This document shows positions 7,535 to 45,185 of a stretch of 64,000 nucleotides of DNA, piece by piece. The stretch lies in IMG/VR virus record IMGVR_UViG_3300045988_122188, one strand, 5' to 3'. Positions within the stretch are counted from its first letter, which is position 1, and the number at the start of each line of letters is the position of its first letter. Origin of the DNA: a virus. The translations under genes were made by a program, and so were the position numbers. The notes beneath the pieces are model-generated. The model worked only from the letters and a program-made list of their open reading frames with translations. It was not told the origin of the DNA and ran no database searches.

Positions 7535-9283
7535 TCAATCCCAAATATCTTCGTCTAATTCTTCATCTGTTGTGATGCTCAGAACATTAATATCATCAAC
7601 CGCAATTTGATATTGTCTAATTCCGTTAAAGATATTAGTCTGTGCAGTTCCTACTAATTCAAATGTAACTGTGCCTTCGTCAGAAAAATCATTCATAATC
7701 CAATCATAAATCTTATTTTTTTCATTACATCTAAACATCACGCATGGAATATCATTAATCTTGAATTGCATTGTATCCATTTTCTTACCAACAACATTAA
7801 TTTCTTCCTTATTTAATGTGATATTCTCGACAGCAATCATCGGATCATCAATGCCCTGCCCGCGAATATCATCCAATTTAGACATTTCCTGTAGTAGTTC
7901 AAAATCTAATCTACAAGCATCTACAATGAAATCAACTCTATAAGTTGAATCATATTTAATATCTTTCAGCTTGTCGTTTAATTCTGTGAGTGCTCCAGAG
8001 ATATTATCTGTCGAACATCCAAATGCATTGGCGTGACCTTTTGCCCATAAAAATGAATTTGTTTCGGATATCACATCTTTCAAACTATCAATCGGGCTAT
8101 GGTCTACATTTCTTGCACTACCACTCATTTCTACTAATCCTGTTTCTGGATTAATATGTTTTCGTAATAACAAACATGGTCTGTTCATATCTTCAGCAAT
8201 CTTAATAGCAACCAATCCTGTCAAACTGCTATCTAATGTTTCTGTAACATCAAGAATAGTAATCTTACTATCTTTATCTTTTTCTGCCTCTTTCATAATA
8301 ATCGGAACCATCTTTTTCTTTTGACGATCCTGTTTGCCTTTAGCATTTTTGCATAATCGAGCGGCACGATCGTAAATATTCTCTTTGATTACTTCCGCAG
8401 GGTTGTTTTTTGTTGCTCTTTTCTTATAGTCAAATACCTCATAGTCTTCAATAAATGCTCTAAAAACTAATTCTTTATCTTTCAAAGAACCAAATCGTAC
8501 CATACCATTGATAATTGGAACGATATACCACTGAACATTATGGATATTAACAATACTATGCATTGAATAATCTTGTGCCTGAATTAGTGCTTTAAAGCAT
8601 TTATTCTGAATATTCTGAAGCCCTTTATCCACTAATCGACGTGTCTCAAATGATCTCATATCCATGACATCACCGATATTCGCTAATGCACATAAATCTA
8701 AATAATCATCAGCATAATTGATCCATAATTCGTCATCCATTGCTTGCAAAAATCTATAAACAACGCCTGCCCCACATAAGTCTTTGTTCTTATAGCGTGG
8801 ACTGCACTGGTTATTTACAATTACAACTTCCTCTGGCATTTTAATTTCAGATTCTTCTTTTTCATGGTGATCAAGAATTACAATCTGTACGCCACGATTT
8901 ACAAGTTCTGTACATTGTGCTACATCATTGGTGCCTGCATCTGGAATTATTAGAAGTTTCACGTCTTCAGGTATAGTAATATCTTCACTTAATCCATGAG
9001 CTTTTGCTTTTTTATGTAATAAGTAACAAATGTTACTCTTACCATCATAAAGTTCATTATTAATGCGATTTAAGTACATATATGCCATCGAAGCCGAGCA
9101 AAATCCGTCTACGTCCTCGTCAATTAAAATACCGATTTTATGTCCATTTTCAAGTGCAAAAATCGTTGTATTTACTGCATTTTTGATACCCTCTAAATCA
9201 GCATAATCTTGAATTACGCTATCATCGAGGTTCAAATACGTTTCATAATCATCAATCCCTCTATTTCTTAAAATTTCTGGCAC
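7535..9283 (-). CDS. DHH-family phosphoesterase (RecJ-like ssDNA exonuclease candidate)
   Basis: DHH motifs ILIDEDVDG, IIPDAGTND and VILDHHE. Confidence 0.6.
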   Translation of the reverse strand: MPEILRNRGIDDYETYLNLDDSVIQDYADLEGIKNAVNTTIFALENGHKIGILIDEDVDGFCSASMAYMYLNRINNELYDGKSNICYLLHKKAKAHGLSEDITIPEDVKLLIIPDAGTNDVAQCTELVNRGVQIVILDHHEKEESEIKMPEEVVIVNNQCSPRYKNKDLCGAGVVYRFLQAMDDELWINYADDYLDLCALANIGDVMDMRSFETRRLVDKGLQNIQNKCFKALIQAQDYSMHSIVNIHNVQWYIVPIINGMVRFGSLKDKELVFRAFIEDYEVFDYKKRATKNNPAEVIKENIYDRAARLCKNAKGKQDRQKKKMVPIIMKEAEKDKDSKITILDVTETLDSSLTGLVAIKIAEDMNRPCLLLRKHINPETGLVEMSGSARNVDHSPIDSLKDVISETNSFLWAKGHANAFGCSTDNISGALTELNDKLKDIKYDSTYRVDFIVDACRLDFELLQEMSKLDDIRGQGIDDPMIAVENITLNKEEINVVGKKMDTMQFKINDIPCVMFRCNEKNKIYDWIMNDFSDEGTVTFELVGTAQTNIFNGIRQYQIAVDDINVLSITTDEELDEDIWD

Positions 9284-15316: not shown

Positions 15317-15856
15317 TTATAAGGATGGGATTAATTTATTTTTAATTTTTTTCAATTGATATTGAATTGCTTGATATGTAACACCAAGGGTATTTCCTAT
15401 TTCTTCGTTCGTATACCCTTTTGCCTTTAAATTAATAATTAACCTGTCCTTATTATTTAGTATTCGCATTTGCTCATCAAAACACAAAAAGAAAATTAAT
15501 TTTTTTTCATTATTTTTTTTATCAGCTAGCAAAAAAGAATATTCTTTTTCGTCTTCATCTAAATCATTCATTAACTGATTGTACGATAAGGTAAGTCGTT
15601 CATCTCTTTTATCTGCAAATCTCCATCGAGTATATGCTATAATTTCTTTTTGCATACATTTATATGCATATGTAGAGAATGATTTAGCTTTGGATTCATC
15701 ATAATCAATTGCTGCCTTACACAACCCAATAGCAGCGAATCCATAATAGTCATCAAAATCTTGTCTGCGGATACCGCATTTTGTCATAGCAGAGTAAATC
15801 AAATTATGATTTTGTTCTACCAATTTTCTCTGTTCGTCATTTAATTTCAACGACAT
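15317..15856 (-). CDS. Sigma-70-family sigma factor (regions 2 and 4)
   Basis: C-terminal HTH NLKAKGYTNEEIGNTLGVTYQAIQYQLKKI. N-terminus KLNDEQRKLVEQN is paralogous to 21899..22432. Confidence 0.7.
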   Translation of the reverse strand: MSLKLNDEQRKLVEQNHNLIYSAMTKCGIRRQDFDDYYGFAAIGLCKAAIDYDESKAKSFSTYAYKCMQKEIIAYTRWRFADKRDERLTLSYNQLMNDLDEDEKEYSFLLADKKNNEKKLIFFLCFDEQMRILNNKDRLIINLKAKGYTNEEIGNTLGVTYQAIQYQLKKIKNKLIPSL

Positions 15857-20254: not shown

Positions 20255-20796
20255 TGTTTCATTTCTCCTTTCACAACATAGGACTCAATCAATCCTTTTC
20301 TTAGTCGATCATTCATATCCTGAATCGCTTCCTCAATTGTCTTAAATTTACATGAACAAATATGCTCTTTGGTCAAATTAACAAATGAATATGTGCCATC
20401 TGACTTGTTCCTAAAAATAACAACCACTGATTCTTCTCCATCTGGTTTCTTAACAATAAATCTGAGCGCACCTTTTTGTGTTTCCTTTTTATTTTCAAGT
20501 AAAATAGTATAATTGATTTTTAACCAGCTACCATATGCCCATACTTGTTTAATTTTTTCTTCAGCATTTTGAAGTACACAATGTCTATAATCAATACTCT
20601 CGATATTATAGACAAGTGATTCAATGGCTTCTTTATCATTTTTTATTGTAATTTGACCATGCGTTCCATTTCTTCCATCTGCAATCGCATCAATAAATTC
20701 TTCTACAGTATATTCTTTATCAAGCACAACATCATATTTAGTATATTTATCGTTATCAGAACGTGGGCGTTTTATTAATTTAAACATCCCTATCAC
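20251..20796 (-). CDS. Hypothetical protein
   Basis: ORF of 181 aa, downstream of the HigA-like gene. Confidence 0.4.
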   Translation of the reverse strand: MIGMFKLIKRPRSDNDKYTKYDVVLDKEYTVEEFIDAIADGRNGTHGQITIKNDKEAIESLVYNIESIDYRHCVLQNAEEKIKQVWAYGSWLKINYTILLENKKETQKGALRFIVKKPDGEESVVVIFRNKSDGTYSFVNLTKEHICSCKFKTIEEAIQDMNDRLRKGLIESYVVKGEMKQ

Positions 20797-21049
20797 CTAC
20801 TTTCTTATCAAATGTTTCTTGCAAATTTAACCAGAACTGCCCATCATCAGCAAACCCATAATGGTCTGCCATTGTTTTCGCAAATTCTTTTGTAACACTT
20901 TGTGATCCGTCAATCAACCCTTGAACATAATCAACATCCATGCCAATTTTACTCGCAAGCTGATAAGGAGTCATCCTGCAAGATTCAACAAATTCTTCTA
21001 AGCATTCGCCAGGATGAAAAGCAATTTCGTCTCCAATCTTTACATACAT
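20780..21049 (-). CDS. HigA-like XRE-family HTH protein
   Basis: HPGECLEEF...MTPYQLASKIG...FWLNLQ pattern, typical of HigA antitoxins. Confidence 0.6.
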   Translation of the reverse strand: MYVKIGDEIAFHPGECLEEFVESCRMTPYQLASKIGMDVDYVQGLIDGSQSVTKEFAKTMADHYGFADDGQFWLNLQETFDKKVGDRDV

Positions 21050-21051
21050 TT

Positions 21052-21885
21052 TTACACCATTCCTCTCACAATTCGTTCATTTGTTGTCATCAAGAAGTTA
21101 TTGATACGATCCCAGTCTGGTTCGTCTGGCAAATCAGTATTCATATAATCATAATCAAATTGATAAAGTAATCCTTCAATAAAAACATCGTATGACTGAT
21201 TTGGGAAATATTCTGTATGCTCATTGTGTTTGCTAAATCTATATGTTTTATGCGTACTATTATACCCTTCTTTGATCTTTACAAGATCTTTTCCTATGTC
21301 GTCCATAGACCCAAACATTGTTCCGTTATGTAATAATTCAATGCCCTGCAACAATAATCGAACTGCATGCATCATTGATTTATTAGCGTATCGTTCTGCC
21401 TTTTGCTTTTCTTTCTCTGAATCTTTATTTTTATAATACTTAAAACTCGTTCGAGTCAGACAATCGCATATATATCCTTTATATGCATGATAAACTCTCT
21501 TAGATAAGAACATGTCTCTATTTTTGATCAACTCCATACCAATATCGGATACATACAAATAGCGGTCTGGCGCAAAGTATAGCAACTCTAAAAATGTAGG
21601 ATTGCCCTTGGCAAGCATATTAATCATCTTAATATGCGAATGTAACACGGTATCAATGTCTTTATGATTATCGGTCTTCTCAAGATTGTTCTGGTTATTA
21701 TTCAACAAAATCTCTCTTTTATCACTAAGAAAAACACCACGTAAATCAATGTCAGAATCCTCTGTGTTTGTTCCGTAGGCATAACTTCCACCTAACGTGA
21801 GAAAAGCGATTTTGTGCGGATAATCTCGCAAAAAGTCATACTCTGTAGACGAGTTTATGTAATTCTTTACTTCTTCAATTGTCAT
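21052..21885 (-). CDS. Pol-beta-superfamily nucleotidyltransferase
   Basis: GS motif LGGSYAYGTNTEDSDIDLRGV. Start moved to MTIEEV, which has an RBS (AAGAGGTGAG). Confidence 0.6.
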   Translation of the reverse strand: MTIEEVKNYINSSTEYDFLRDYPHKIAFLTLGGSYAYGTNTEDSDIDLRGVFLSDKREILLNNNQNNLEKTDNHKDIDTVLHSHIKMINMLAKGNPTFLELLYFAPDRYLYVSDIGMELIKNRDMFLSKRVYHAYKGYICDCLTRTSFKYYKNKDSEKEKQKAERYANKSMMHAVRLLLQGIELLHNGTMFGSMDDIGKDLVKIKEGYNSTHKTYRFSKHNEHTEYFPNQSYDVFIEGLLYQFDYDYMNTDLPDEPDWDRINNFLMTTNERIVRGMV

Positions 21886-21898
21886 GGTCTCACCTCTT

Positions 21899-22432
21899 TT
21901 ATCCACATAATGCTTTCTTAAACTGTACAATATTTTGACTAACCCACTGATGAGTGATTCCAAGCTGACTTGCAATTTGTCTTTGTGTTAAACCTTTCTG
22001 CTTTAACGTGATAATCTTTTTATTTCTCGGTGCCAATTTATCAAACTCATTTTGAAAATGTACCTTTGTAAGCACCTCATCTTCTACGTTATCCCCACTC
22101 ATCAGTGTTGTTCCGATTGTAATATCATCTTCTGGTTCATATCCTGCCAATGGCGTATCTAACGATTCAGCATTCCTATTCATTTTTTCTGTTGGTCTGT
22201 GCCATTTTGTATAATATTGATTCACTTCTGAACGTAATACCCAGAAGAGATATGTACCAAAAGTTCCTTTAGACTCGTCCCATTTTAATGCTGCTTTACA
22301 AATTGCCATACGACCAAGATCCATATATGTATCAAAATCTGTAAACTTTGTAAAATATTTTTCATGTAAATGCCAAATTAAAGAATAATTATCTTCAATC
22401 AGCTTTCGCTGTTCATCATTTAATTTCTTCAC
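21899..22432 (-). CDS. Sigma-70-family sigma factor, second paralog
   Basis: N-terminus KLNDEQRKLIEDN is paralogous to 15317..15856. C-terminal HTH LKQKGLTQRQIASQLGITHQWVSQ. Confidence 0.7.
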   Translation of the reverse strand: MKKLNDEQRKLIEDNYSLIWHLHEKYFTKFTDFDTYMDLGRMAICKAALKWDESKGTFGTYLFWVLRSEVNQYYTKWHRPTEKMNRNAESLDTPLAGYEPEDDITIGTTLMSGDNVEDEVLTKVHFQNEFDKLAPRNKKIITLKQKGLTQRQIASQLGITHQWVSQNIVQFKKALCG

Positions 22433-23201
22433 ATTTTTTATCCTCCTGTTCTTTAATGAATTTTTGTACTTCCTCTACATAGCTTAATTCAAAATATCTT
22501 TCAATATACCCGCCCATTGGAACTCCAGTATATTTAAAATTAGGAATAGTTTCTTTTAGTTGACCACAAACCTCGGATCTAAATGTGTTTGTATATTTTT
22601 TCAAATCATTCATGGAATATGTTTGTTTAAAATATGGCATATCAAGAGTGTTAAATAGTCTCCATAAAAAACTACTATTTCTATACTTTGTTAACTTACT
22701 GTCACGCAATACATCCATAAAATCTCTCATAAATCGGATTATCTTATCAACATCTTTTGATGCTAATTCAAATACTAAATTTTTTGATTCATCATAATAT
22801 GTATAATCATCATATTTCGTATTTGAATAAATCTTGTATACCTCATTTTCGCCTGATAGATTTGCTGATATATTATTAACACTCAAAACTTTGCCATTTT
22901 TCATAACTATTTCATTGCTACACAATATCGCAGGAGATGTTATAGAGAATTTATCCAATAAAACATATTGTGGGTTATGATTGAAATAGGGATTATGATT
23001 GTCAAAATTACCAAACATATCTGACAGCTCAATCCAATCTTTATTTTTCAATGAATCAATTTCCGTCCATTCATCTCCAAGACAAATACCACGAACTGTT
23101 TTTAAAACTCTTTTACCATAAATTTCAACATCGGCTTCCCAATCTGGATCTCTGTGTTTACTAAAAGCAAGTTCAATTTCTCTTGTATTTTTCCTTGACA
23201 T
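22416..23201 (-). CDS. Hypothetical protein
   Basis: ORF of 261 aa. Confidence 0.45.
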   Translation of the reverse strand: MSRKNTREIELAFSKHRDPDWEADVEIYGKRVLKTVRGICLGDEWTEIDSLKNKDWIELSDMFGNFDNHNPYFNHNPQYVLLDKFSITSPAILCSNEIVMKNGKVLSVNNISANLSGENEVYKIYSNTKYDDYTYYDESKNLVFELASKDVDKIIRFMRDFMDVLRDSKLTKYRNSSFLWRLFNTLDMPYFKQTYSMNDLKKYTNTFRSEVCGQLKETIPNFKYTGVPMGGYIERYFELSYVEEVQKFIKEQEDKKCEEIK

Positions 23202-23204
23202 ACA

Positions 23205-24158
23205 TCACACTCCTAACACATATTTATCACTTCTGAACCCAGCTGCATTTGGATGACCGCCACCACCATATTTCACAGCAAGCTCATACACATTTACTTT
23301 ATCCTGTTCTGCGGATCGTAGCTGGTATTCCCACATACTTCCATTGAATGAAAAACCGATGAACATATCGTATTTAGAAGCGTCAATAGATTCGAAGAAA
23401 TCAGAATTGATTAATGCTCGATTGATTGCATAGACTTTATGCCCTTCAAATATGGTTTCAAAACCATATGCTCTAAGATATTGTTCTGCATTTGCTGCTA
23501 AATACTCAATAATTGATAAGCCATCTGCTATCATATCACCAATAATTTTTGCTGCTTCATAAATTCCTTGATCTTTATTTAACGTGTTTAGCAAAGGACT
23601 TAACGCATCAAAATCATACGATTCAAATGCATAGTGAAATGCTTTTACGAATTGTTTTGACGTTTCACCAAAATAAAATGTATCCCACATGGCTGTATAT
23701 TCTACCAGTTTTGGATAATCTGCTTTATATTTATATATATTGAGTAATCTTTTTACATTTTTCTCATCCGTCCTCTCAATTTGCTCCCAATTTTCATCAC
23801 ACATATATTTAAAATATAACCATGTCAAATTCGCTCCTGAAATACCCGCTCCAGTAATTCTGATTCCTTTTACATCACACTTGAAATCTTTATACGCTTC
23901 AATCGTAGACTGATGATGGTCGATCCAAAATACATTCTTTGTAATACTGAGCAACTGCCACATCTCTTCTGGCTCAATACTGTAGTCTACAATAAACACA
24001 AATTCATCCTGCTCAATGTCATGAAACGGGAATTTCATACCGTAATTAATTTTTCGAAAGTCCTCTGGTTCAAATGCCAAGCCTCGCTGTTCGCAAGCTT
24101 TTCTGACGTAGAATCCAGACACGATTCCGTCTTGATCCACATGATAAAAACATTTCAT
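23205..24158 (-). CDS. DHH/DHHA1 phosphoesterase (NrnA / pAp-phosphatase / c-di-AMP PDE-like)
   Basis: DHH motifs HVDQDG, FIVDYS and WIDHHQS, plus the DHHA1 GGGH motif YGGGGHPNAAGF. 317 aa. Confidence 0.8.
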   Translation of the reverse strand: MKCFYHVDQDGIVSGFYVRKACEQRGLAFEPEDFRKINYGMKFPFHDIEQDEFVFIVDYSIEPEEMWQLLSITKNVFWIDHHQSTIEAYKDFKCDVKGIRITGAGISGANLTWLYFKYMCDENWEQIERTDEKNVKRLLNIYKYKADYPKLVEYTAMWDTFYFGETSKQFVKAFHYAFESYDFDALSPLLNTLNKDQGIYEAAKIIGDMIADGLSIIEYLAANAEQYLRAYGFETIFEGHKVYAINRALINSDFFESIDASKYDMFIGFSFNGSMWEYQLRSAEQDKVNVYELAVKYGGGGHPNAAGFRSDKYVLGV

Positions 24159-24208
24159 TCTTTAGTCCTCCTTCTCATTTCTCTGTTTATATACAAACAT
24201 CTACTAAT

Positions 24209-24838
24209 CTATCTTTTTGAAAAGATATAATCCAATTGATTTTTAATATCATTCAAAGACAAAATTTCTTTCTTATATCGTTTAAATTGAATGTCATGCA
24301 GTATCTTTTCATATTCTCTCTCTTTCTTATAGTGATCCAAGATCAACTCTTTAAGACGAATAGAATATTTCATATGATATCTGTTTTGAAAAATCATTCC
24401 CCTCAAAATATTTAGATCAATATGTGGATTTTCTTCTAATACAATATCTAATGTATTGCTTTCCTTTGCCTTTATATAAAGCTCATCATACCATACGTTT
24501 CTTTTTATGTCGTACACTAAAGAATCTAAGTTGAAAAATACAGTAAAAGGTAAATTCTTTAGATAATCTTCTTCAGAACAGTTAATGATATTCTCTCTAT
24601 ATGCCCATGTTTGCTCTATTCTCCATACATCAACAACAATGTCATGGTAGGTAATTTTATATCCATCAAAAAAGTTCTTTCTGGCATGATATTTTTTACA
24701 AACTGCATCAAACTTATCTGTTTCTTTTGTATCAATCACAACGTCAATATCTTTTGCATCTTTAATGTTGCCTGTTTCTAAAAATTCTCTTGGGGCTCCG
24801 CCTATCAAGTAAAGATCCCCTGTATTATACAGTTCCAT
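24209..24838 (-). CDS. Minimal nucleotidyltransferase with a CCA-adding / poly(A)-polymerase head-domain motif
   Basis: YLIGGAPREFL...KDIDVVIDT matches the GGxVRD...DxD signature of tRNA-NT/PAP head domains. Only 209 aa, so it lacks the body and tail domains. Confidence 0.55.
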   Translation of the reverse strand: MELYNTGDLYLIGGAPREFLETGNIKDAKDIDVVIDTKETDKFDAVCKKYHARKNFFDGYKITYHDIVVDVWRIEQTWAYRENIINCSEEDYLKNLPFTVFFNLDSLVYDIKRNVWYDELYIKAKESNTLDIVLEENPHIDLNILRGMIFQNRYHMKYSIRLKELILDHYKKEREYEKILHDIQFKRYKKEILSLNDIKNQLDYIFSKR

Positions 24839-24912
24839 AAATAATTGTTGTGCTGATTTATAATGATTTAGACAGTTTTCAATACTGTTGTTTTCATAGC
24901 CCTTCTTAGTTT

Positions 24913-25224
24913 TTATTCTTTTTCCTCCTTTACAAGCTTAACTTTATAACCAAGTTCCTTTTCAATTTCTTCAATCGTCATTTCTTTTGGCGGAGAATAA
25001 CTCATATTCAAACTATCAATATCAGTTTCCATATTCCAAACACTTCTGTAAATCAATCTTCCTACCAAAATACAAATTGCTTTCTTAACTTCTTGTGCTG
25101 TCGGTGGATAATGATCTAATGATGCAATAATATGTTTGTAGTTTTCTTCATTCAATAAAACACGCTTAGAGTCAAGCGATGAATCCTCTTCTTCTCGTGA
25201 TTCAATATATAAAAAGTGGTTCAT
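24913..25224 (-). CDS. Hypothetical protein
   Basis: ORF of 103 aa. Confidence 0.4.
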   Translation of the reverse strand: MNHFLYIESREEEDSSLDSKRVLLNEENYKHIIASLDHYPPTAQEVKKAICILVGRLIYRSVWNMETDIDSLNMSYSPPKEMTIEEIEKELGYKVKLVKEEKE

Positions 25225-27518: not shown

Positions 27519-27690
27519 AATAATCAGAAGATACCCATACCCAACTATTTTTTATATAGATTAAGAAATCTGCACCCTTTTCATAGTAATAACCTTGTGT
27601 GTATGGGCTAGGGCTTACTCCATACACTTTGTATGGCTTACCTTTATATAAAACTTTCATACTATTCATCCAACTCACAATCAACATCAA
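27466..27690 (-). CDS. Hypothetical small protein
   Basis: ORF of 74 aa. Confidence 0.3.
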   Translation of the reverse strand: MMLIVSWMNSMKVLYKGKPYKVYGVSPSPYTQGYYYEKGADFLIYIKNSWVWVSSDYCVPYKKKKHKKEEGKRY

Positions 27691-28195
27691 ATAGATATTT
27701 TATGATGCGTTTTGCTCCAACCTTGTTGGCGGCATCCTCAGCGATTTCTTTAGAAGAAAAATATACCTCATTTAGGCGTCTAAGTTGTACGGCAGGGATT
27801 TTTGCCAAATCATCCTCAGTCACATCATATCCAATATAATAATGAAAATTCGCTCCATCCCATTCTTCTTGATCAGGATCATTATGTTCATCAGCATATA
27901 TTTGCAATTCAACCCTAACCTTCTGCTTTTCAATAGCAAACTCTGTATCCTTTTCAGTCTTAAATACATTACCTAAAGCTAATCTTCTAAAATCTGATGC
28001 TCTACCTTGCCATTTTGCCATACAGATATGCCCATCATCAGTGATGAAATAATACGTATCCCCATTCTTTAAACCACATGAATTAGCTTTTTCTTCTTTT
28101 TCTGATCTTTCACAAAATTGCTCAAATAATGATTTGAATAAATTCTGTTGTGCTTCAGATAATTTTGAAATATCAATTGTCTTTTCTGTACCCAT
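27662..28195 (-). CDS. Hypothetical protein, tandem paralog A
   Basis: Shares TIDIS..LSEAQQ..LF..CER and LGNVFKT motifs with 28212..28724. Confidence 0.5.
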   Translation of the reverse strand: MGTEKTIDISKLSEAQQNLFKSLFEQFCERSEKEEKANSCGLKNGDTYYFITDDGHICMAKWQGRASDFRRLALGNVFKTEKDTEFAIEKQKVRVELQIYADEHNDPDQEEWDGANFHYYIGYDVTEDDLAKIPAVQLRRLNEVYFSSKEIAEDAANKVGAKRIIKYLFDVDCELDE

Positions 28196-28211: not shown

Positions 28212-28724
28212 TTATGCTCCAAAGATGTATTTAATGATTCTGTCTCTTCCGATTGCTTCAATTGCATCAACTAAAACATCTTTTGATGTAAACATAACTG
28301 TACCCTGTATTTTTGTTGTAGCCCATGTATCGCAAAGAAGTCTTTTTCCGTCTTCTTCACATCGAATACAATAACAACGATTGGCAAATTCTGTGCCATT
28401 GTGTTCCTTTGCATACCGCTCAAGTTCAACTTCTACTTTTCTTTTCTTTCTTGCAAATACTGCTTCTTCTTGTGTTTTAAATACGTTGCCTAATACCCAT
28501 CTACCGTTATCGACAATGCTATTAAACCATATTGCACTATAAATAGATCCGCTACCATCAATGTAATGATATCTTTCACCGTATTTTGGTTTCCAAACTT
28601 TAGACCCTGAATTAGTTTTTTCTTTTGGTTTCGCTCTTTCACAACATTTATCAAATAATGCTTTTATTAGATCCTGTTCTGCCTCTGGCAGCACTGAAAT
28701 ATCAATTGTTTTTGTTGTACTCAT
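28212..28724 (-). CDS. Hypothetical protein, tandem paralog B
   Basis: Paralogous to 27662..28195. Confidence 0.5.
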   Translation of the reverse strand: MSTTKTIDISVLPEAEQDLIKALFDKCCERAKPKEKTNSGSKVWKPKYGERYHYIDGSGSIYSAIWFNSIVDNGRWVLGNVFKTQEEAVFARKKRKVEVELERYAKEHNGTEFANRCYCIRCEEDGKRLLCDTWATTKIQGTVMFTSKDVLVDAIEAIGRDRIIKYIFGA

Positions 28725-44438: not shown

Positions 44439-45185
44439 CTATAAAATCCTAATAATTTGTTCGTAAATTGCAATCGCATTATCTCCTGGAAAGTTCTGGT
44501 TCACATGCATATGCCCAAAGAACCATTTTTGATAAATCACTTTGTCTTTTATTTGCTGTAAATAATCCGTTAACTTGTCAGATTTGTACACTCCTGATCC
44601 TTGATCCATTTGTCTTAAAACAGATGTGTATGGACTATGTGTAATAACGTAATCTACTTGGAAGTCATTTTTCTCTAAATTCATCACACCTTCTGCCATC
44701 TCTTTATCAGATGGCAATTCTTCTTTCCACCAGCTCACATGATTAATCCTAAACATTTTGTCATAATCTCTGTACCATTCATTAATTCTTGGATCGTCTG
44801 GCTCTAAAATTCCATCTTGCACATCATGGGAACTGGCACCGCCAAATGTAAAGAATTTCTTTCCTTGAATTTCAAACACCTGTCCACGCATAAGATGAAA
44901 TACAGAGTCTTTGATCTTGTGAATCTTTCCGCCACACCATTTCTCTACAGGATATTGATATAAGCGGTCGTAATTTTCATGATTCCCACATACAAACAAT
45001 GTAGTAAATGGCTTGTTATCTAACCATTCCAGATTATATCGTTCTTCTTTTGTGTCATGCCACAGTCCAAAATCTCCGCAGATAATCACATAATCATCTT
45101 TGGTTAACTCAACTCCCTCTGGGAAAGAACGACTGTTTAATCGAGTCATCCAATCCCCATGTGTATCTCCTGTTACAAATATCAT
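44439..45185 (-). CDS. Calcineurin-like metallophosphoesterase
   Basis: MIFVTGDTHGD, IICGDFG and GNHENYD motifs. Confidence 0.8.
   Translation of the reverse strand: MIFVTGDTHGDWMTRLNSRSFPEGVELTKDDYVIICGDFGLWHDTKEERYNLEWLDNKPFTTLFVCGNHENYDRLYQYPVEKWCGGKIHKIKDSVFHLMRGQVFEIQGKKFFTFGGASSHDVQDGILEPDDPRINEWYRDYDKMFRINHVSWWKEELPSDKEMAEGVMNLEKNDFQVDYVITHSPYTSVLRQMDQGSGVYKSDKLTDYLQQIKDKVIYQKWFFGHMHVNQNFPGDNAIAIYEQIIRIL

Follow-up and report, generated by a model that had tools for sequence, protein, structure and literature searches.

An orphan CloB-family nucleotidyltransferase of a gut Firmicutes phage may silence the Clover defence and is separate from the neighbouring DHH phosphoesterase

The Clover defence was first described in 2025 (Yamaguchi et al. 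2025 preprint, PMC12265719). The product of its nucleotidyltransferase CloB is p3diT (pppdTpdT), which binds CloA and holds its dGTPase off; CloA is toxic without active CloB, and the higher the level of p3diT, the higher the level of dTTP that is required to trigger the system. Our analysis shows that CloB is structurally a head-and-neck derivative of the class II CCA/poly(A) enzymes, a family that the preprint does not mention. No phage countermeasure to Clover is known so far. Here we describe a phage locus that carries a CloB-family gene alone.

The DNA that we analysed, referred to below as the window, is a 64-kb stretch of an SPbeta-like gut Firmicutes phage genome of about 155 kb; its genes discussed here all lie on the minus strand. 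A first-pass annotation had pointed to three neighbouring ORFs, whose positions we confirm: a 209-aa nucleotidyltransferase (NTase; 24209..24838), a 317-aa DHH/DHHA1 phosphoesterase (23205..24158) and a 261-aa protein (22416..23201). It had proposed that the first two form a module for RNA 3'-end repair or oligonucleotide processing. The three ORFs are real and not chance ones, since each has numerous homologues (only 15 in the case of the 261-aa protein). A megablast of the region against phage GenBank gave no match. Upstream of the NTase are a 5' remnant of its ancestral gene (24839..24897) and a conserved 103-aa gene without a Pfam match or an assigned function (24913..25224; cluster c0, found in 49 of 52 sister loci). 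The latter is the upstream border of a variable, accessory slot, which lies between it and a conserved block in the order DHH phosphoesterase, variable ORF, sigma factor, RlaP, HTH protein. The sigma-70-family factor (177 aa, 21899..22432; Sigma70_r2/r4, phrog_351 at 6e-27) overlaps the preceding 261-aa gene by 17 bp, and it stands 3' of the DHH gene even where the phage DHH is only 46% identical. The RlaP-family Pol-beta nucleotidyltransferase occupies 21052..21975 (PF10127, 88.1 bits against a cut-off of 23) and the HTH (HigA/antitoxin-like) protein 20780..21049 (HTH_31 and phrog_1381; kept in sister contigs). The 261-aa protein is still a protein of no assigned function, as annotated, and matches nothing in Pfam, PHROG or NCBIfam; a PADLOC hit to GajB (21 bits) was judged spurious. 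It varies among sister contigs and sits in a second variable slot, which in other phages holds variants 35-49% identical to it or is empty. NAD+-reconstitution genes are also present in the window, and a search of 10 further window ORFs for dTTP-raising phage enzymes found none.

On the evidence of its sequence, the 209-aa protein is a member of the CloB family, a small Pol-beta NTase with the head-and-neck fold of class II CCA/PAP enzymes. The annotation had rightly seen a GGxxRE...DxD head-domain signature in it, which reads LIGGAPRE...DIDVV. Across homologues, G13/G14, R17, D30, D32 and D70, the third carboxylate, show little or no variation, and the Pol-beta active site ([DE]h[DE]...h[DE]h) is present as D30-I-D32 and V-D70-V, both invariant in our alignments A1 and A2. 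D30 and D32 are the counterparts of D71 and D73, which were mutated in CloB (PMC12265719). Besides motif A of the head domain, the fold of head and neck is there, with 172-175 residues of the NTase aligned to the N-terminal portion of enzymes some 340-520 residues long. Nothing follows the neck: the protein has neither body nor tail (tRNA-binding) domains, and it lacks motif B (RRD), motif D (the EDxxR nucleotide template), a PF01743 match and indeed any Pfam match at E <= 0.1. In a profile alignment to the T. maritima CCA enzyme, RRDFTINAM falls opposite NLPxTVF.NxD and DDPtR opposite EENPxx; a true phage CCA enzyme (locus L183) has both RRD and EDxxR. When the PDB was searched with the NTase alone or with the narrow profile A1, no meaningful relative was returned, and CCA enzymes were reached only by the broad profile A2. 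A tblastn of the NTase against phage GenBank gave no match.

Several comparisons place the NTase in the CloB family. The family numbers 1,553 representatives at E <= 0.001, and in a neighbour-joining tree the window NTase is nested in its Clostridia clade. BLASTP aligns it with a CloA-linked Lachnospiraceae NTase (L027) at 43% identity (E 9e-63), and hhalign compares its family with proteobacterial CloB orthologues (A7) at 99.65% and E 5e-25; the A7 members adjoin CloA orthologues that match the CloA structure 9P8T at 7e-149. Bacterial CloB-family genes lie immediately downstream of the dGTPase CloA: a dGTPase homologue or remnant is found directly upstream on the same strand at 38 of 44 non-redundant loci, and at all 33 loci from bacterial genomes. 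This partner matches the PADLOC dGTPase (1e-71 to 1e-74) and TIGR01353, and among solved structures Salmonella CloA (9P8S-9P8V) is closest to it, at 7e-149 for the gammaproteobacterial partner (9P8T) and 6.5e-75 for the Lachnospiraceae one, the next matches being at 1e-49 to 1e-52. CloA-CloB pairs are present in Lachnospiraceae genomes. By hand mapping on one pairwise alignment, Lachnospiraceae CloA keeps 5 of 10 p3diT-contacting residues (R29, D37, R38, N181, R314), and of its three residues that read the bases, two differ by the same mapping. In the likely host CloA the ligand pocket is therefore conserved only in part, and the signal may differ from p3diT.

No such partner accompanies the phage gene. 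CloA is absent from the 64-kb window by tblastn with five CloA homologues (best E 0.47), and the gene upstream of the NTase is the 103-aa ORF; no CloA lies upstream at L013-L017, L001, L113 and L114 either. All six orphan NTase loci are on viral or mobile-element-like contigs, and they represent three or more separate lineages. Few viral contigs have a CloB-type gene: IMG/VR has 12 loci, and rescanning the viral contigs with a profile of Firmicutes CloB added none. Full-length copies of the NTase occur in the same slot of diverged phages, while in sister phages this place is taken by two Tad2-like anti-defence genes (PF11195, 46 and 34 bits) or an NDT-like gene, or is left empty. The NAD+-reconstitution genes of the window add to this anti-defence context.

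The window allele itself is damaged at its N-terminus. A frameshift has removed the first 22 or so codons, and the 209-aa ORF is a 5'-truncated one; full-length relatives have 228-235 aa. The ancestral start ATG 24897 now opens a 9-codon ORF (MKTTVLKTV-stop, TAA 24870-24868), whereas the ancestral N-terminal residues (..CLNHYKSAQQLF) are still encoded in frame with the NTase but lack a start codon, and the internal ATG 24838 has no obvious Shine-Dalgarno sequence. The frameshift is present, with identical sequence, in all four near-identical viral contigs (L013-L016). In a second orphan lineage (L001) the same N-terminal region was lost independently by a nonsense mutation. Programmed -1 frameshifting at TTG-AAA-ACT, which would restore the N-terminus, was ruled out because there is no slippery heptamer at this site.

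The 317-aa neighbour was correctly annotated as a DHH/DHHA1 protein. It has a two-domain fold with the superfamily's DxD, D, DHH, D and GGGH motifs, namely H6-x-D8-x-D10, D58, D80-H81-H82, D159 and GGGGH302, all invariant or nearly so in 18 homologues. An NrnA assignment does not follow from the searches (NCBIfam NF053633, 15.9 bits against a cut-off of 350): the protein is below the Pfam and NCBIfam cut-offs, and in a PDB profile search its similarity to NrnA-type proteins lies mainly in the GGGH segment. By fold it is closest to archaeal RecJ-like proteins and to PAP phosphatase. It belongs to a phage-specific clade (phrog_4771), and tblastn against phage GenBank finds only 26-28% matches, some of them annotated as ssDNA exonuclease; a PADLOC hit to SngA (12 bits) was judged spurious. 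The DHH gene is a core gene of this phage group, and the NTase lies directly upstream of it in only 4 of 52 sister contigs. We therefore do not regard the two as a module, contrary to the first-pass annotation. NTase relatives at 67-68% identity adjoin other, unrelated genes. A 317-aa gene that follows the NTase in L001-L004, at first taken as DHH, is not DHH by tblastn and has no Pfam match. The idea that DHH is an alternative Clover-type effector under the control of the NTase was rejected because the DHH gene is a core one, whereas 4 of 52 contigs have the NTase.

The recurrent companions of DHH are different. RlaP (PF10127), a family of RNA 3'-end-extending repair enzymes according to biochemical work (PMC12776372), is kept with DHH in all sister contigs and is also found near DHH in distant phages. 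In other large phages, RlaP, a genuine CCA-adding enzyme and DHH follow one another as triplets (L174, L179, L183, L185, L195-L199); DHH directly follows a bona fide CCA-adding enzyme and RlaP at 10 of 80 loci, and at L184 it is near RtcB. The CCA enzymes of the triplets are full-length (413-455 aa), with RRDFTINAM, EDALR and an HD domain. Hence the idea of RNA-end repair retains some merit for DHH alone, given RlaP here and the triplets elsewhere, while CCA rebuilding by the NTase finds no support. Most likely, DHH is a 3'-end or short-oligonucleotide phosphoesterase that works alongside RlaP to heal RNA ends or to recycle nucleotides. The triplets are a candidate tRNA 3'-end repair module and deserve a separate study.

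In our opinion, the best explanation of the locus, to which we give an even chance of being right, is that a captured orphan CloB keeps host CloA switched off and that DHH is a separate gene and not its partner; a link to anti-phage defence, already suspected in the annotation, is plausible. It may be objected that the gene is a relic. A temperate phage would once have carried CloA-CloB as defence cargo, and after loss of the toxic CloA the harmless CloB would be decaying without a function. Complete CloA-CloB pairs do exist on some viral contigs (L018, L021, L022, L024), bacterial genomes contain degraded CloA remnants beside intact CloB (L025, L026, L036, L046), and the two independent N-terminal disruptions, the internal ATG without a clear ribosome-binding site and the loss of the catalytic aspartates in the orphan L023 (N-x-N in place of D-x-D) agree with such decay. 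However, dN/dS across orphan NTase copies 66-79% identical to each other is 0.10-0.18 at dS of 0.65 to about 2, as low as in the core DHH gene (0.08-0.13); judged by its substitution pattern, the phage NTase is under purifying selection. Moreover, the 630-nt ORF is still open in a genome of 32% G+C, orphan copies have been kept in two or more genomic contexts and also in phages that have diverged, some of these copies having an intact N-terminus, and a single frameshifted allele is shared by four mosaic phage backgrounds. We consider decay without function unlikely, though it deserves to be kept in mind.

Two further explanations involve DHH. DHH/DHHA1 enzymes hydrolyse c-di-AMP, pApA, pGpG, cA4 and pAp, and the gene, with its catalytic motifs intact, adjoins an anti-defence slot; it could thus, as a counter-defence of its own, degrade the messengers of CBASS, type III CRISPR or other cyclic or linear oligonucleotide signalling, as was predicted for jumbo-phage DHH enzymes by comparative genomics (PMC7824862), or turn over the dinucleotide of the NTase in a synthesis and degradation pair. 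Degradation of p3diT, however, would activate CloA and harm the phage, DHH is core whereas the NTase is rare, DHH is conserved together with a sigma factor, RlaP and CCA-adding enzymes and not with signalling genes, and a generic role as nanoRNase or in nucleotide recycling fits the ubiquity of DHH equally well. We regard this role as improbable. Still less probable, and in our view close to being dismissed, is a tRNA 3'-end repair pair in which DHH would trim or heal the damaged ends and leave the rebuilding of CCA to the mini NTase. The class II CCA/PAP head-and-neck fold, the RlaP gene within the same gene block, the triplets and the RtcB neighbour elsewhere, and the archaeal RecJ-like and PAP phosphatase folds all speak for such a pair. 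But the NTase has no RRD, EDxxR, body and tail domains or PF01743 match, it is phylogenetically CloB, it rarely stands beside DHH, its 67-68% identical relatives have unrelated neighbours, and the CCA enzymes of true triplets are full-length with an HD domain.

Under the captured-CloB explanation, the phage would have taken CloB from its Clostridia hosts and would fill the cell with an inhibitory 5'-triphosphorylated dinucleotide of the same kind, so that host CloA would be locked off during phage replication. The counter-defence would consist in producing the host's own 'off' signal, a logic which follows directly from the published mechanism (PMC12265719): because what restrains the toxic dGTPase is a dinucleotide made by an enzyme, Clover predicts that the side with more inhibitor wins, and a phage CloB without CloA is the gene to be expected for a strategy of inhibitor supply. 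That gut-Clostridia phages indeed beat Clover in this manner, making a p3diT-like 5'-triphosphorylated dinucleotide via a partner-less CloB, is a proposal we make tentatively and with somewhat more doubt than belief. In the literature that we searched, no paper mentions a phage CloB homologue or ties one to counter-defence, and no case of a phage supplying the inhibitor of Clover is described. If true, this would be the first anti-Clover mechanism and, as far as the searched literature goes, the first case of a virus suppressing immunity through synthesis of an immune nucleotide signal, not through its destruction or sequestration.

It remains to compare the locus with known systems. The NTase shares with CloB the protein family, the Pol-beta catalytic triad, the motif LDIVLEENP and, where the N-terminus is intact, the size class; it differs in having no CloA dGTPase partner, in being phage-encoded in an accessory slot and in its N-terminally truncated allele. 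Motif A (GGxxR[ED]...DxD) and the third carboxylate are common to class II CCA-adding, A-adding and CC-adding enzymes and bacterial poly(A) polymerase. The CloB family, however, has LDIVLEENP at the templating position of EDxxR and no RRD; weak PF01743 matches are found in 20 of 49 of its members and not in the window protein, and its characterised member makes a free dinucleotide, whereas CCA-adding enzymes extend tRNA. DHH has all the DHH and DHHA1 motifs of NrnA/NrnB nanoRNases, pAp phosphatases, archaeal RecJ2/RecJ-Cdc45 and archaeal PAP phosphatase, but compared with NrnA-type enzymes it is below cut-off and of a phage-specific clade. The triplets of other phages resemble the locus in the same DHH family (40-45% identity), in RlaP and in a class II-fold NTase immediately upstream of DHH; here, however, this NTase is a small one of CloB type and is missing from most sister phages.

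A further parallel is T4 Dmd, which acts against RnlA/LsoA and is a phage counter-defence that supplies the missing inhibitor of a toxic effector. The mechanism that we propose shares its logic with counter-defences of the Dmd type and with Hailong and Panoptes, the inverse-signalling defences cited in the Clover preprint (PMC12265719): a labile or limiting inhibitor holds the defence off, and an inhibitor supplied by the phage disarms it. The inhibitor that we propose differs from the Dmd-type cases in that it would be an enzymatically made nucleotide signal and not a protein or RNA antitoxin.

The three ORFs described in the first-pass annotation are indeed where it placed them. The nucleotidyltransferase (NTase; 209 aa, 24838-24209, minus strand) carries the head-domain signature GGxxRE...DxD plus a third carboxylate, and D30, D32 and D70 are invariant among its homologues. 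In the DHH/DHHA1 phosphoesterase (DHH; 317 aa, 24158-23205, minus strand), H-x-D-x-D, D58, DHH 80-82, D159 and GGGGH are likewise invariant or nearly so. AlphaFold models of both proteins are confident (pLDDT 91 and 86).

We disagree, however, with the idea that the NTase is a CCA-adding enzyme. A broad family profile allows the T. maritima CCA enzyme to be aligned with it, and in this alignment the motif B RRD and the motif D EDxxR template are missing: the NTase family has NLPxTVF.NxD and LDIVLEENP, respectively, instead. The protein also stops after the neck, hence the body and tail that bind tRNA are missing. By contrast, a genuine phage CCA enzyme (447 aa, locus L183) has RRDFTINAM, EDALR and PolyA_pol_RNAbd, tRNA_NucTran2_2 and HD domains. 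The NTase has no match in Pfam, PHROG, NCBIfam or PADLOC; weak PF01743 matches occur in 20 of 49 sampled family members.

An exhaustive profile search returned 1,553 cluster representatives of the family, and nearly all of those among the 150 listed stand alone, with lengths of roughly 190-290 aa. We sampled the neighbourhoods of 44 non-redundant loci, drawn from metagenomes, IMG/VR and GTDB genomes; those in genomes belong to Lachnospiraceae, Oscillospiraceae, Bacillales, Bacteroidota and Proteobacteria. In 38 of the 44, among them every one of the 33 loci in bacterial genomes, the gene directly upstream on the same strand encodes a 455-540-aa protein of a single family or is a remnant of such a gene, mostly with a gap of less than 60 bp or an overlap. 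This partner is a dGTP triphosphohydrolase (PADLOC dGTPase, 1e-71 to 1e-74; TIGR01353). Its closest solved structure, by a wide margin, is an octameric Salmonella "dNTP triphosphohydrolase" (9P8S-9P8V; E = 7e-149 for a gammaproteobacterial and 6.5e-75 for a Lachnospiraceae partner, versus 1e-49 to 1e-52 for ordinary dGTPases), which is CloA of the anti-phage system Clover (PMC12265719). CloB, the NTase downstream of CloA, synthesises p3diT, a dinucleotide that binds CloA and prevents its activation by dTTP; the operon is toxic when the CloB active site is mutated (PMC12265719). The window NTase is 43% identical to a CloA-linked Lachnospiraceae NTase (E = 9e-63), its clade matches proteobacterial CloB orthologues with 99.65% probability (E = 5e-25), and in a neighbour-joining tree this clade is nested within the Clostridia CloA-linked one. 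Because of the CloA-type partner of its relatives, the homology to CloB and the position in the tree, assignment of the NTase to the CloB family on sequence grounds is well supported. Membership of a Clover system is not, since CloA is absent from the 64-kb window and does not adjoin any member of the window clade.

The proposed pairing with the DHH enzyme does not hold either. Among 55 IMG/VR contigs with a DHH of the window type, 52 are at least 79% identical in this protein, and all 52 retain the DHH, the variable ORF, the sigma factor and the PF10127 NTase RlaP (window 21975-21052, minus strand), with the HTH gene in all but a few. The NTase is found in only 4 of these 52; full-length versions occupy the same place in two further metagenomic contigs. 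Relatives 67-68% identical to it adjoin, instead of a DHH, a 317-321-aa protein without a Pfam match. A variable slot (window 24159-24912; for example, L058:4397-5000 in a sister phage) separates the DHH from a conserved 103-aa gene (24913-25224). It may hold two Tad2-like genes, an NDT-like gene, both, a CloB-like NTase or nothing. The adjacent Tad2-like pair (PF11195, above threshold) is present in 28/52, the NDT-like gene (PF15891, below the Pfam cut-off) in 28/52, and the slot is empty in 6/52. Therefore the NTase is an accessory gene of an anti-defence-type hot spot, which adjoins a core gene by chance, and not a partner of the DHH.

Among the sampled loci, CloB-type genes without CloA amount to six non-redundant ones (L013, of the window type, L017, L001, L005, L019 and L023). 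All six are on viral or mobile-element-like contigs, and the tree splits them into at least three lineages; no genome locus (0/33) lacks CloA entirely. Purifying selection acts on the orphan copies (dN/dS 0.10-0.18 at dS 0.65-2, the range of the core DHH gene). Certain observations count against function. The window ORF is truncated at its 5' end: the ancestral ATG at 24897 now yields MKTTVLKTV-stop, and the ancestral N-terminus (..CLNHYKSAQQLF) is still encoded in frame with the NTase but has no start codon. This frameshift recurs in four viral contigs with differences elsewhere, so it is genuine rather than an artefact of sequencing. Full-length relatives have 228-235 aa, and the internal ATG has no obvious Shine-Dalgarno sequence. 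Independently, a nonsense mutation (..LKHRLIAD*LFMKLY..; L001:9930-10000, also L002-L004) has removed the same N-terminal segment of about 22 residues from the NTase of another orphan lineage (P0012, present on 53 contigs). On a 139-kb viral contig (L023:5911-6510) the orphan protein has N-I-N at the site of the catalytic D-x-D, which probably leaves it without activity; D-I-D is retained in its relative in L019. Near the CloB-like gene both L019 and L023 have an NAD-dependent DNA ligase and a metallophosphoesterase.

The DHH belongs to phrog_4771, falls below Pfam and NCBIfam cut-offs, and its family is frequent in viral contigs (>500 matches). Its recurrent neighbours are RlaP, which extends damaged RNA 3' ends by one or two nucleotides (PMC12776372), and a sigma factor that persists even at 46% DHH identity. 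In several diverged phages we find a tight triplet of RlaP, a full-length class II CCA-adding enzyme with an HD domain, and DHH (L174:4510-7888, L179:4612-7885, L183:4649-7888, L185:3457-7722; further L195-L199, L211, L217 and L273), present in 10 of the 80 loci of a second DHH sample. Its genes abut or overlap in L183, and its CCA enzymes are ~50-62% identical among diverged phages. We regard the triplet as a candidate module for tRNA 3'-end repair. The family has one more link to RNA repair: in another phage the gene for the RNA ligase RtcB lies two genes upstream of the DHH homologue (L184:5412-6644). Given the RlaP, CCA-enzyme and RtcB associations, a role of the DHH in RNA-end healing or trimming is a reasonable hypothesis. 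The enzyme may also be a generic nanoRNase or serve nucleotide recycling, or it may hydrolyse signalling nucleotides, as has been predicted for phage DHH enzymes (PMC7824862).

The window is from an SPbeta-like temperate phage of gut Clostridia. Its G+C content is uniform (29-37%), and the minus strand carries all sizeable ORFs except two that are nested within larger minus-strand ones. The window encodes a PolIII-alpha-type polymerase, a DnaB-like helicase, primase, exonuclease V, a RecJ-like exonuclease (7535-9283, a second DHH-superfamily protein), PcfJ, two paralogous sigma factors (15317-15856 and 21899-22432), a metallophosphoesterase (44439-45185), and integrase-like and anti-repressor genes; YorF is found in its relatives. 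The same sequence is found in viral contigs of IMG/VR (about 153-157 kb), GenBank has no cultured phage similar to the region, and Anaerostipes is the sole named source of a relative of a neighbouring gene. Consecutive minus-strand genes for NAD synthetase, nicotinamide phosphoribosyltransferase (NAMPT) and ribose-phosphate pyrophosphokinase (PRPP synthetase; 33117-36207) are the set known from phage NAD+-reconstitution counter-defence pathways. Two adjacent minus-strand ORFs without Pfam matches (177 aa, 27662-28195; 170 aa, 28212-28724) are by eye apparent paralogues, with similar N-termini (..TKTIDIS.L.EA.Q.L.K.LF..) and a common LGNVFKT motif. In a minus-strand tRNA-like element (30239-30376; Rfam tRNA, 46.4 bits; not called by ARAGORN) the acceptor, D and T arms have a normal appearance, CCA is not encoded, and downstream there is a terminator-like hairpin. 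The anticodon loop is replaced by a ~66-69-nt AT-rich insertion with the closing stem GGCAAT/ATTGCC, a length insufficient for a group I intron.

A phage-expressed CloB would raise the inhibitor level in the infected cell, and the infection's dTTP surge would then fail to activate the host dGTPase. This proposal builds on what we observe of the gene (family, fold and catalytic residues, absence of CloA, accessory slot, purifying selection); for what CloB synthesises and how this acts on CloA it draws on the literature on the characterised Clover system, for which a preprint reports that overcoming 20 uM p3diT takes >200 uM dTTP (PMC12265719). We mapped the p3diT pocket by hand, in one pairwise alignment, from Salmonella CloA (9P8T) onto a Lachnospiraceae CloA (L027:3433-4899). 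By this mapping five of ten contacts are retained (R29, D37, R38, N181, R314) and T25, R34, F41, N75 and Q311 are changed. Since two of the three base-reading residues are among the latter (N75 to A, Q311 to R), the inhibitory dinucleotide of Clostridia may differ from p3diT in base composition. In the literature searched, CloB and p3diT in this sense come up only in the Clover preprint and one 2026 review, and neither source refers to phage-encoded CloB homologues or to an anti-Clover factor. The family is a known one, its partner-less viral setting is new, and counter-defence is a specific and testable reading of it.
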